Source of the DNA: Candidatus Obscuribacterales bacterium
Lineage (GTDB): Bacteria > Cyanobacteriota > Vampirovibrionia > Obscuribacterales > Obscuribacteraceae
Direction of reading: 5' to 3'
Length of the DNA stretch: 64,000 bases
NCBI GenBank assembly: GCA_965228855.1
Contig: CBDDIJ010000003.1
Coordinates: forward strand, 3,360,001 to 3,424,000
Shown: positions 19,082-21,756 of the stretch, piece after piece
Position numbering within the stretch: the stretch's first letter is position 1
Layout: each line of letters starts with the position of its first letter
The notes under the pieces: generated by a model
Databases searched by the model: none
The model's input: the letters and a program-made list of their open reading frames with translations, nothing else
What the model was told of the DNA's origin: nothing
Translations under genes and position numbers: made by a program

Positions 19082-20152
19082 CTATCGTATTGCAGCTCTG
19101 ATCCCGTACTGGGCAGCCCGCATCAATAACGATTTGCCCTGTCGCTTCACTTGTGTTTTAACAGGATGAGCAGCCGGATCATTGCCAATAGCTTTGCCCT
19201 CTCCTCGTTGTTTCGTTGTCTGACCGTTACTGGCGACAAGTTCTTCCTCATTCTTGTCATACATCGGCCGGCCATAATCGCTATAGGCTTTCACATCGAA
19301 GTCTTTGTATTGAACAAACGGACGAGAAGCCATTCTCTGATGCATAATCACATCACATGTTTTCACCGCATGTGGTGGCAGGTCCATTTTGACAGGATCG
19401 AAAGTTCTCGGATTGATGACTGTTCTGTTAAACACATCGGACGTCAGAAAGCGTTTCTTCTTTTCATACGCAACATCAAAATGCTGCATTTCGCTGCGTT
19501 TACGCTCCGCCGCCGTATGCTGGCTCAGATGCTGCTTCTGCATCTCACTGAACTTCGCGTTTTTCTCGTCGCGGCTCAGAGCCGGATCGACCCAGACAGC
19601 ATTGAGAGTCTTGGCGAATTCCAGTTCGCTAGCCAGATCCTTAGAATTCCAATAGCCCGGCAGACAGGTCAAGACTGTACCGTCCGACGCCATAACGAAC
19701 ATTTGAATATTATGCGGACCGGCTCCGTTTGTCGTGTCGACGGCCTGTCCATTGGGACTGTGTTTACGCGAACTTCCGGCATATCCCTTGTTCTCGATAT
19801 CCTTATAGCCGCATACAAATTCGTTCTTAAGCAGACTAAAAACTGGATCTTGCGAGAGCGACACGGCTCTCAAGCTGTTCCCGGCGCTTCAAGTAAAACC
19901 ATCGAGCTTTCCGACCATATGCACCCAGAGTATCAGCTTGTCTTGCGCCGCCGCCTCTTCTTGCAATTTATCAAGGTCTCGGCTCCAGGTGATCTCATTT
20001 GTCAGTCGTCCAACATTCTCCGAACAGATTTGTCCGGAATAGACCGGTGACGCCTGTAATGGCGAATTCATACCGGATGAAACGATACCAGTCGCTAAAG
20101 AAACAGCCAGAAGAGCCGAAAGCAACGGACGAGCGGCAAGTGGATTTCGCAT
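19082..20152 (-). CDS. Candidate exported thioredoxin-fold selenoprotein (SelN-like), in-frame TGA at 19889-19891
   Basis: ORFs 19889..20179 and 19082..19873 share a frame; readthrough gives GKLDGFT-U-SAGNSLRAVSL. Signal peptide present and a SECIS-like hairpin lies downstream of the TGA. Confidence 0.72.
19849..19874 (-). promoter_or_regulatory. Putative bacterial SECIS hairpin
   Basis: CUUGAGAGC-CGUGUC-GCUCUCGCAAG; the apical loop starts at nucleotide +24 after the UGA and has GU at loop positions 2-3. Confidence 0.62.
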
Positions 20153-20223
20153 GTTCCATCTCCGAGAGCTAACATGCATTGTACACCGAGATGCTTCGGA
20201 CTGCTGACGCTATTCCAGCCACC

Positions 20224-21756
20224 CTAGCTAATCAGGACAGCAGCCTCCACTTCATCTACCTTCTTATTCACGGCAGCAGCCGCAATGCCGCTTATCATGC
20301 CGTTAAACACAAAATGATGCAGCGGAGAAACAGCCTTCCAGTAAGCCAGACCCAGAAGTCCAGACGGTAGAAATTTTGCGGTTTGAATCAGCTTGCTCCT
20401 GCCAGGCGAAATTTCTTCGATAGTAAACTCCAATACCGCCTCACCAGGCAAAATCATCTCAGCAACGAGGACCAGTGCTTTGTTTTTCTCCACACGCTTC
20501 ACGCGCCAGAAATCGAGAACATCACCGGCAGAGAGTTCACTGGGACTGCGCCGTCCCCGTCTCAAACCTACGCCGCCTATCGCCTTGTCCATGATGCCAC
20601 GCAGGCGCCACAACCAGTTGCCGTAGTAGTAGCCGGTGCTTCCGCCCAGGCGAACGAGTGGATTCCAGATTTGCTCCGGCGTCCTATCCAGCGTCAACTC
20701 CCGCCGATCCATGTAGACCGTGCCACCTGACCACTTCGCATCGGCTTCACTGCTCCAGGCCACTGGCCAGATTTTGCCTGCGTCCGTCCAGTGACTTTCC
20801 ACGAGATAATTTTGCGTTTTGTTCAACGCATTGCGAATCGCGCCGCGGCAGCTTAGAAGGTCCTGTTTGATGATTTCTCTTATGTCATTCTCTCGGCACA
20901 CGGTAGGATTCTTCAAGCCTTCAGCCAGAGGGCGCCCAAGGTAGGCAGGGACGGGCGTGACCAGATGTATCCAGTATGAGCTGAGTGTGGGCGTGAAAAA
21001 CGGAATCGGGATGATCAATCGCGGGCCAAGCCCGGCAACATCGGCGTAAATTTCCATGAGGTCACGGTATCGGAGAATATCCGGGCCACCGATGTCAAAA
21101 GTCCGCCCCCTTGTTTCCGGATGAGTTAAACAACCGGCTAGATAGTTGAGAACGTTTACGATTCCTATAGGCTGCGTTGGCACCGATACCCATTTAGGCG
21201 TGATCATCACAGGAAGCCGCTCCACAAGATAGCGGAGAATTTCAAACGACGCACTGCCGGAGCCGATTATCATCGCAGCTCTGAGAGTAGTAAGAGGAAC
21301 CTTACTCCTCGCGAGAATCTCGCCGACCTCAGCGCGCGATCTTAGATGTTTACTCAGATTTGGTGAGTCCTCACCCAGACCGCCGAGGTAGATTAGTTGG
21401 TCAAGACTGGAATTATCCGCAGCTCTCACCATATTCTCGGCGGCAGTACGGTCATCGTCTGCAAAATTTCTTGACTGGGCGTTCATAGAATGGACAAAAT
21501 AGTAAGCCTTTTTGCACCCTTGCAGGGCCGCCTCGATTGACCCCTGTTCAAGCACATTCGTCTCGACTAGCTCGACATTCGGATGATCGGCCCAGTGGCG
21601 CCCTCGTAATTTGTTGAGGTCACGAGAGGTTGCTCTCACAGTCCAACCTTCGTCCAGAAGCTTTCGAACCAGTCTGGTTCCAACATATCCTGTTGCGCCG
21701 ATCACGGCGACTTTGTCATTCATTGTCACCACTCCAGCCGACTTCTCTATTACCAC
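20224..21756 (-). CDS. Atypical SDR NAD(P)-binding oxidoreductase with DUF2867 domain (YbjT-like)
   Basis: GATGYVG, HLRSRAEVG, GSGSASFE, LDFWRV and AEMILPG motifs. Confidence 0.92.
   Translation of the reverse strand: MVIEKSAGVVTMNDKVAVIGATGYVGTRLVRKLLDEGWTVRATSRDLNKLRGRHWADHPNVELVETNVLEQGSIEAALQGCKKAYYFVHSMNAQSRNFADDDRTAAENMVRAADNSSLDQLIYLGGLGEDSPNLSKHLRSRAEVGEILARSKVPLTTLRAAMIIGSGSASFEILRYLVERLPVMITPKWVSVPTQPIGIVNVLNYLAGCLTHPETRGRTFDIGGPDILRYRDLMEIYADVAGLGPRLIIPIPFFTPTLSSYWIHLVTPVPAYLGRPLAEGLKNPTVCRENDIREIIKQDLLSCRGAIRNALNKTQNYLVESHWTDAGKIWPVAWSSEADAKWSGGTVYMDRRELTLDRTPEQIWNPLVRLGGSTGYYYGNWLWRLRGIMDKAIGGVGLRRGRRSPSELSAGDVLDFWRVKRVEKNKALVLVAEMILPGEAVLEFTIEEISPGRSKLIQTAKFLPSGLLGLAYWKAVSPLHHFVFNGMISGIAAAAVNKKVDEVEAAVLIS

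Follow-up and report, generated by a model that had tools for sequence, protein, structure and literature searches.

Does a TGA codon that separates two open reading frames in the genome of an Obscuribacterales bacterium terminate one gene, or is it read as selenocysteine (Sec) within a longer gene? The question was raised by a first-pass annotation of a 64,000-nucleotide stretch of this genome (hereafter, the window), which proposed that the two frames together encode an exported selenoprotein similar to selenoprotein N. Selenoprotein N (SELENON, also known as SEPN1) is a human muscle-disease protein. Here, we examine the reading of the TGA, the protein that would result from it, and how that protein is related to SELENON.

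A single in-frame TGA divides the gene

The gene is located on the minus strand of the window (19082..20152), where it begins with an ATG at 20152 and ends with a TAG at 19082, and both halves lie in one frame in homologs. As the first-pass annotation had described, the two open reading frames share this frame and are split by a single TGA (19891-19889), which is the sole in-frame TGA of the gene and corresponds to codon 88. Readthrough yields a protein of 356 aa with Sec88 (P0001), and the translation is identical to the one quoted at that time. Translation table 11 splits the gene into 19889..20179 and 19082..19873, the second of which has the TTG start that had been pointed out. A GGAGA sequence that resembles a ribosome-binding site (20159..20163, minus strand) lies 6 nt ahead of the ATG, and a homolog that is 92% identical (L019) has its start codon at the same place. 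The genome is 8.2 Mb and 95% complete. Sequencing error had been raised as a concern; the codon 88 TGA is unchanged in assembled contigs from two public runs, one of which is possibly the source of the assembly. No RNA run was listed among the sequencing runs that hold this sequence. The expectation that annotation splits such genes was borne out by the protein databases, which mostly hold halves: in one search 115/120 matches begin after U, and in a second search with 150 matches, 118 begin after U and 11 end at U. The gene is also overlaid by an antisense open frame of 299 codons (window 19151-20050, plus strand), with similar frames in about 22 related loci; it is most likely a by-product of the true coding sequence on the opposite strand.

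The TGA is conserved and occurs with the Sec machinery

Four paralogous genes in the genome, including the one described here, have TGA at this column; three belong to a subfamily A with the motif T-U-S and one to a subfamily B with the motif C-U-T. The genome collection contains 214 confirmed loci. Of the 80 that match best, 79 have TGA at the column and the remaining one lacks coverage of the site; these loci are mostly from Obscuribacterales and show 42-92% identity. In an overlapping set from this genome and its relatives, 32 of 33 loci map TGA to the column. The 33rd (L047, in genome G033) is a frameshifted gene copy in which the TGA is retained but lies in a different frame, and its SECIS stem is decayed.

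Among proteins that span the site, Cys is the commonest residue at the column (7/14 and 2/5 spanning full-length homologs), which answers the first-pass question of whether homologs carry TGA or Cys there, and one Cys paralog has TGT in place of TGA. Spanning homologs of subfamily B have Cys in 11/13 cases, with S in one other. The cluster of Cys-type homologs contains a Planctomycetota record. In some full-length homologs (P0068, P0170, P0234, P0248, P0257) the column is occupied by S, A or P, so that redox activity at this position does not extend to the whole family.

The first-pass annotation had also suggested a search for selA, selB, selC and selD, and all four are encoded in the genome: the tRNA-Sec gene selC exceeded its cut-off of 47 with a score of 73.5 bits, SelA was detected at E 9e-132, SelD, which is of the Cys type, at E 8e-111, and SelB scored above its cut-off. 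The family is present in 30/61 related genomes, all 30 of which encode SelA, and in 0/26 of the genomes that lack SelA, although Fisher p-values for this co-occurrence are overstated because the 61 genomes are related and not independent. Five of the 61 encode SelA and no subfamily A member. Within one genus, the family occurs in two SelA-positive genomes and is absent from the SelA-less one. In a profile search over 151 genomes of the class, 31 genomes matched, all of which fall in two families of one order. The idea that G033 is in the process of losing Sec altogether was dropped, as this genome retains tRNA-Sec (SelA is apparently split there).

A conserved SECIS hairpin follows the TGA

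Downstream of the TGA lies a bacterial SECIS hairpin with comparative support (19854..19871, minus strand). Its 6-bp stem pairs 19871-19866 with 19859-19854 (+18..+23 with +30..+35), and its 6-nt loop spans +24 to +29 with G at the second position, in agreement with the stem-loop and loop start that had been described. The CUUG/CAAG extension proposed along with it did not stand, as its G is shared with the upper stem and its register is not conserved among 84 distinct homologous stretches. Folded alone in four windows, the hairpin is no more stable than shuffled sequences (z 0.64, 0.50, -0.01 and 1.01). The published bSECIS model specifies a loop of 3-9 nt, a stem of 4-16 bp, G in the first two loop positions, a distance of 16-37 nt from the UGA, and an MFE of -7.5 or lower; this hairpin lies within all those limits, with a loop of 6 nt, a stem of 6 bp, G as the second loop nucleotide, a spacing of 23 nt and an MFE of -9.6 kcal/mol. 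A check for a bacterial SECIS thus came out in favor of the first-pass proposal on four published constraints (PMC13188914) and on synonymous constraint besides.

The synonymous constraint is apparent in the codons that form the hairpin. In 30/30 aligned genes the A96 and V97 codons are invariant, and the codons for S98 and L99 show a pairwise identity of 0.81, compared with a mean of 0.31 and a maximum of 0.63 for 47 other conserved degenerate sites; the Arg95 codon is always AGA or AGG. The six stem pairs are kept in 80, 84, 84, 84, 84 and 79 of the 84 distinct subfamily-A stretches, and the +22/+31 pair, which is G-C in 84/84 of subfamily A, is A-U in 14/15 of subfamily B. The Cys paralog keeps the residues L-R-A-V-S-L-S and encodes them with different codons. 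Judged from these sequence comparisons, the hairpin is a conserved SECIS element, and the constraint on it is gone in the Cys-codon copy. Genome-wide, a loose SECIS pattern produced 351 matches, mostly by chance; with a tighter pattern and long flanking frames, three of the four paralogs are the only stems of seven or more pairs. The recoding system shares SelA, SelB, SelC and SelD with other bacterial Sec/SECIS systems and shows no mechanistic difference from them.

Codon 88 is most likely read as selenocysteine

We weighed Sec at codon 88 against two other readings. If UGA were read as another residue such as Trp or Cys, through local or global recoding, then the W found at the column in three database proteins (P0037, P0077, P0176) would be accounted for. 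However, the context of P0037 is identical to that of locus L041, where the DNA has TGA, so that its W most likely reflects the code chosen by the gene caller, and the W in all three proteins looks like such a choice. Furthermore, W76 is encoded by TGG in 28/28 homologs, and TGA is an ordinary stop in this genome, where it ends 773/2486 open frames of 400 or more codons, which upholds the earlier view that global recoding is unlikely. Because the family also tracks SelA and has a SECIS hairpin, we consider a reading as Trp or Cys highly improbable. Still harder to credit is that the TGA genuinely terminates translation or is erroneous, which would make the locus two genes or a pseudogene. Gene callers do annotate the downstream part as a protein of 250-260 aa, and TTG and GTG starts are available right past the TGA, but a stop at codon 88 would sever the thioredoxin domain described below past its first core strand, the codon is shared by 79/80 loci at 42-92% identity, the Cys homologs are intact, and the contigs of two runs agree. 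Taken together, these sequence comparisons lead us to put the probability that UGA at codon 88 is read as selenocysteine, with the split halves forming one gene, at about 97%.

The protein is a predicted exported thioredoxin-fold protein

The N terminus contains a predicted cleavable signal peptide (residues 1-34; 20051..20152, minus strand), with a basic start, a hydrophobic core, an L-Q-A end and no lipobox Cys. Hydropathy peaks at 2.31 at residue 10, with a next best value of 1.28, and the leaders of homologs resemble residues 1-34. Based on this leader, the protein is very probably exported. Residues ~46-188 (19589..20017, minus strand) comprise a thioredoxin-fold domain homologous to the C-terminal domain of SELENON. 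The structural model has a mean pLDDT of 82.9 and a pTM of 0.75, with pLDDT 86-98 over the thioredoxin domain, and the modeled domain aligns with 3f9u at Z 11.3 and an rmsd of 2.5 over 110 residues. The top 50 structural neighbors are nearly all thioredoxin-fold chains of the DsbD-gamma/DsbH/AGR type; Foldseek returned no match at E<=0.001 (best, 1.9e-3). By the secondary structure of the model, Sec88 falls between a strand (73-79) and a helix (89-98), and it is predicted to occupy the start of the helix past the central strand, which is the position of the attacking Cys of thioredoxins. A CxxC or UxxC dithiol motif is absent, with T-U-S-A-G/A present in 79/79 homologs. The first-pass annotation had read the site as TUS rather than CUG, which is correct for this gene (F-T-U-S), with the subfamily-B paralog having F-C-U-T.

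The thioredoxin domain is followed in the model by a family-specific helical domain (residues ~190-300; 19253..19585, minus strand), which is absent from SELENON and which the fold search barely tested. Within it, R219, S220, D226, E230, D267, H271, R273 and Y298 are invariant, and H208 and H212 are near-invariant. A basic C-terminal helix (residues 330-355; 19088..19165, minus strand) has low model confidence and is variable among paralogs.

P0001 matched no family in Pfam or NCBIfam at E<=1, and a sequence search of the PDB with P0001 yielded none, while the family alignment as query gave only amyloid-precursor noise at E>=1.1. In the ESM Atlas, two natural Cys homologs fell near unnamed clusters (0.92-0.93) whose commonest phyla are Cyanobacteriota and Myxococcota, and Thioredoxin_7 clusters followed at 0.77, which we take as a lead only. 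The Thioredoxin_7 and Thioredox_DsbH types (PF13899, PF03190), for which we took the structures 3f9u, 2lst, 3ira, 3ph9 (AGR3) and 2ju5 (DsbH), have their fold and domain layout in common with P0001, and the paralogs and Cys homologs have weak Pfam scores to them below the cut-offs, whereas P0001 itself has none. In contrast to these types, P0001 lacks CxxC and has a longer loop ahead of the active residue. NF041199 (Trx7/PDZ) and NF041383 (VPGUxxT thioredoxin-like) are bacterial thioredoxin-like (seleno)proteins too, but their motifs (CxxU, VPGU) differ, and P0001 matches neither. The subfamily-B paralog touches the first ~25 positions of NF041199 (E 0.15) and NF041383 (E 0.013) in a stretch that ends ahead of Sec, and reaches 11-15 bits where the cut-offs are 300 and 275.

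The thioredoxin domain is related to that of SELENON

The profile comparison with SELENON that had been suggested aligns U with U. Using hhalign, subfamily A matched the SELENON domain at 96.5% probability (E 7e-10, 22% identity); against full-length animal SELENON, the match (94.7%) was confined to residues 42-165. A profile built from 20 animal SELENON proteins was searched against 80,620 six-frame segments of the genome in which TGA was read through. This gene was the top match (E 1.2e-5), the three paralogs filled the next three ranks (to E 0.077), and nothing else, ordinary thioredoxins included, scored below E 2.9. The reverse profile found 15/20 animal sequences over the Sec region at E 1e-5 to 0.02. 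When 16 motif columns were masked, the four paralogs still ranked first, at only E 0.5-1.2. The models of the SELENON domain and of P0001 both have thioredoxins of the DsbD-gamma/DsbH/AGR type as structural neighbors, and the top one is 3f9u in either case. A DNA pattern derived from the subfamily-B paralog retrieved 44 metagenome stretches, 37 of which read as a SELENON-type site and 7 of which are chance matches; one stretch (L125) retrieves many animal Selenoprotein N proteins at E 1e-92 or better. In a 57-row tree, SELENON and the bacterial Sec and Cys rows split from 8 CxxC-type outgroup rows with support of 100/99, and SELENON forms its own branch with a bacterial homolog (L127; 99/97), separate from subfamily A; the alignment is short, long branches were flagged, and the order among subfamilies is not settled by the tree. 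L127 (1170-2396, minus strand), which comes from a metagenome, encodes a lipoprotein-like homolog of SELENON with 408 aa and no introns, and it also has the middle region of SELENON and a bacterial-type hairpin.

Several features are common to the two proteins. Both have Gly 7 residues before Sec and Arg 7 residues after it within the homologous C-terminal thioredoxin-fold domain, and the latter is the counterpart of human SELENON R469, which is listed as a disease site in PMC3541580. SELENON resides in the ER lumen, and P0001 is predicted to be likewise extracytoplasmic, in the periplasm. In contrast, P0001 lacks the membrane anchor, the EF-hand and the N-terminal ~400 residues of SELENON, with ~45 residues preceding its domain, and has instead a helical domain after the thioredoxin domain; it is 356 aa long compared with ~560-590 aa. 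The site is T-U-S-A-G, without a vicinal Cys, rather than S-C-U-G-S-G-R, and decoding involves a bacterial SECIS rather than one in the 3'UTR. The earlier label of "SelN-like" thus fits the thioredoxin domain and not the remainder of the protein. As only the C-terminal domain of SELENON is shared, the family is a sibling of SELENON and not an ortholog. The SCUG motif of SELENON is described as a redox site in PMC12839072; our searches found no solved structure of the SELENON catalytic domain.

Predicted function

We propose that the protein is probably an exported single-selenol oxidoreductase of the cell envelope, with redox catalysis at Sec88 likewise probable given the fold, the position of Sec and the Cys substitutions. 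In this mechanism, the SelB and tRNA-Sec of the cell would read the UGA as selenocysteine with the downstream SECIS hairpin, and the signal peptide would be cleaved so that the protein acts in the periplasm. Sec88 would then attack either a peroxide or an oxidized Cys, present as a disulfide or sulfenic acid, in a protein of the envelope. Because T-U-S-A-G contains no second Cys and no vicinal Cys is present, C163 or an external partner, for example a reductase of the DsbD type, would have to reduce the oxidized selenium; C163 is present in 75/79 homologs and C114 in 60/79. Substrate choice would fall to the family-specific helical domain.

For both the kinship with SELENON and the chemistry of the selenium, we considered an alternative. 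The likeness to SELENON could be a generic thioredoxin likeness of the DsbH/AGR type combined with a chance motif in what would still be a selenoprotein, and the 22% identity, the weak scores after masking of the motif, the flagged long branches and the unsettled order among subfamilies are in line with that idea. However, the genome has 10 Thioredoxin_7 matches above the cut-off, and yet the SELENON profile places the four TGA paralogs in ranks one to four, the reverse profile finds 15/20 animal sequences, and the 8 CxxC outgroup rows split off at 100/99. We judge a generic likeness improbable and hold with good confidence that the P0001 domain is specifically homologous to the SELENON domain. 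A more substantial alternative, although still an unlikely one, is that the selenium serves as a metal ligand or sensor rather than as a thiol-disulfide catalyst, with Sec88 and invariant His, Asp and Glu residues forming a metal or substrate site. H131, H147, H208, H212, D226, E230, D267 and H271 are indeed invariant or near-invariant in 79 homologs, no CxxC partner exists, and Ser variants persist. By secondary structure, however, Sec is at the active-site position of thioredoxins, Cys is its usual substitute, and a redox role has been described for the homologous site of SELENON, which together favor the oxidoreductase.

Paralogs, other candidate selenoproteins and gene neighborhood

The other two subfamily-A paralogs, both with TGA and SECIS, are found at G000:C3:1903135-1904022 (plus strand), with a long low-complexity tail that is rich in W-G repeats, and at G000:C5:1052040-1053089 (minus strand). 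The subfamily-B paralog (L018/L048; G000:C3:1338083-1339270, minus strand) has the motif G-A-L-D-D-x-x-C-U-x-x-x-R, which is the closest to SELENON with its vicinal Cys and Arg at +4 and +7, and about 15 related genomes encode close homologs of it that also have TGA. A further subfamily-B relative, encoded at G000:C5:354741-355157 (minus strand), lacks the TGA; in the G007 copy of that relative (L072), Glu occupies the Sec column and the hairpin is absent, and this copy is likely a non-Sec variant. In related genomes, six loci of other thioredoxin-like subfamilies (L069, L078, L079, L081, L082, L083) contain in-frame TGA within the motifs R-C-U-V, C-T-U-N-N-G, D-C-U-L-G and A-T-U-G-N, followed by hairpins in other registers, two of which retain a C-G-U-G loop. 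The genome also encodes a Sec-type MsrA (L076; G000:C2:2345595-2346017, minus strand), in addition to three Cys-type MsrA genes. In L076, Sec takes the catalytic position (G-U-F-W-G), a hydrophobic segment lies near the N terminus, and the UGA is followed by a hairpin of 9 bp. A coding-score scan for further readthrough genes produced 191 candidates, and the 140 viewed include only 1/4 known paralogs, so that any count of the selenoproteome is a lower bound.

No conserved neighborhood was detected, as the commonest neighbor occurs in 15/80 loci, and no neighbor points to a substrate. In the window, the neighbors are a DUF2867 NAD(P)-binding gene, an alcohol dehydrogenase, an aldo-keto reductase and an AraC regulator. 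The DUF2867/NAD(P)-binding gene (window 20224-21756, minus strand) ends 71 bases ahead of the start codon, and co-transcription with it is possible, although this neighbor is not conserved. A search for a promoter-like site for the gene found none. Elsewhere in the genome, tRNA genes form arrays of 21 (G000:C3:724518-727973) and 5 (C3:1529761-1530653), the larger of which resembles the tRNA arrays of mobile elements or phages.

The SECIS hairpin and the SELENON SRE share a position

SELENON mRNA contains an in-frame hairpin past its UGA, the SRE, within which disease mutations are located, according to PMC3541580 and PMC6844570. In both SELENON and the P0001 gene, the in-frame hairpin is centered about 26 nt past the UGA. 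Subfamilies A and B and the full-length bacterial SELENON homolog L127 use register i+j = 53 past the UGA, and 25 distinct eukaryote-type SELENON stretches use register 52, with some at 53. Register 52 in the eukaryote-type stretches has 10.5 expected pairs compared with 1.5 after synonymous recoding, and across these groups the expected pairs after such recoding number at most 1.5. Hairpins of other subfamilies pair in different registers (36, 42, 48, 55), with a range of 36-55 across the six further superfamily loci and MsrA, so that coincidence is possible. The hairpin position is shared; common descent of the SRE and the SECIS is a guess that we regard as rather doubtful. The broader scenario is equally tentative, namely that the catalytic domain of SELENON came from a large and uncatalogued superfamily of bacterial exported selenoproteins and that the SRE is a relic of its bacterial SECIS.

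Significance

The recoding system is standard, and the selenoprotein family appears to be uncatalogued. Its members, with 1-6 copies per genome across most Obscuribacterales, are halved by annotation. A 2025 paper by Haft and Tolstoy reportedly describes new selenoprotein families, and an unpublished thesis is said to mention a SelN from Poribacteria. Within the literature we searched, which was mostly outside subscription papers and did not include Haft and Tolstoy, no description of the family was found. The part of the BSepDB supplement that was searched contains no "SELENON", no "Poribacteria" and no Obscuribacterales genome. Likewise, a 2026 paper with a table of 119 prokaryotic families lists no SELENON-like family and makes no mention of cyanobacteria (PMC13188914). 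The finding thus adds a selenoprotein family that is absent from Pfam, NCBIfam and that table.

The finding also offers a testable origin for the SELENON SRE and provides small, soluble bacterial relatives of the SELENON catalytic domain in natural Sec, Cys and Ser variants, with and without a vicinal Cys, which makes the chemistry of that domain easily testable. An early survey, as reported in PMC9312934, listed Cyanobacteria as lacking Sec, and the host Obscuribacterales sit in that phylum, Cyanobacteriota. The family places Sec use inside Cyanobacteriota, in non-photosynthetic relatives of cyanobacteria, and the expanded superfamily may be a main reason that Obscuribacterales keep the Sec machinery.
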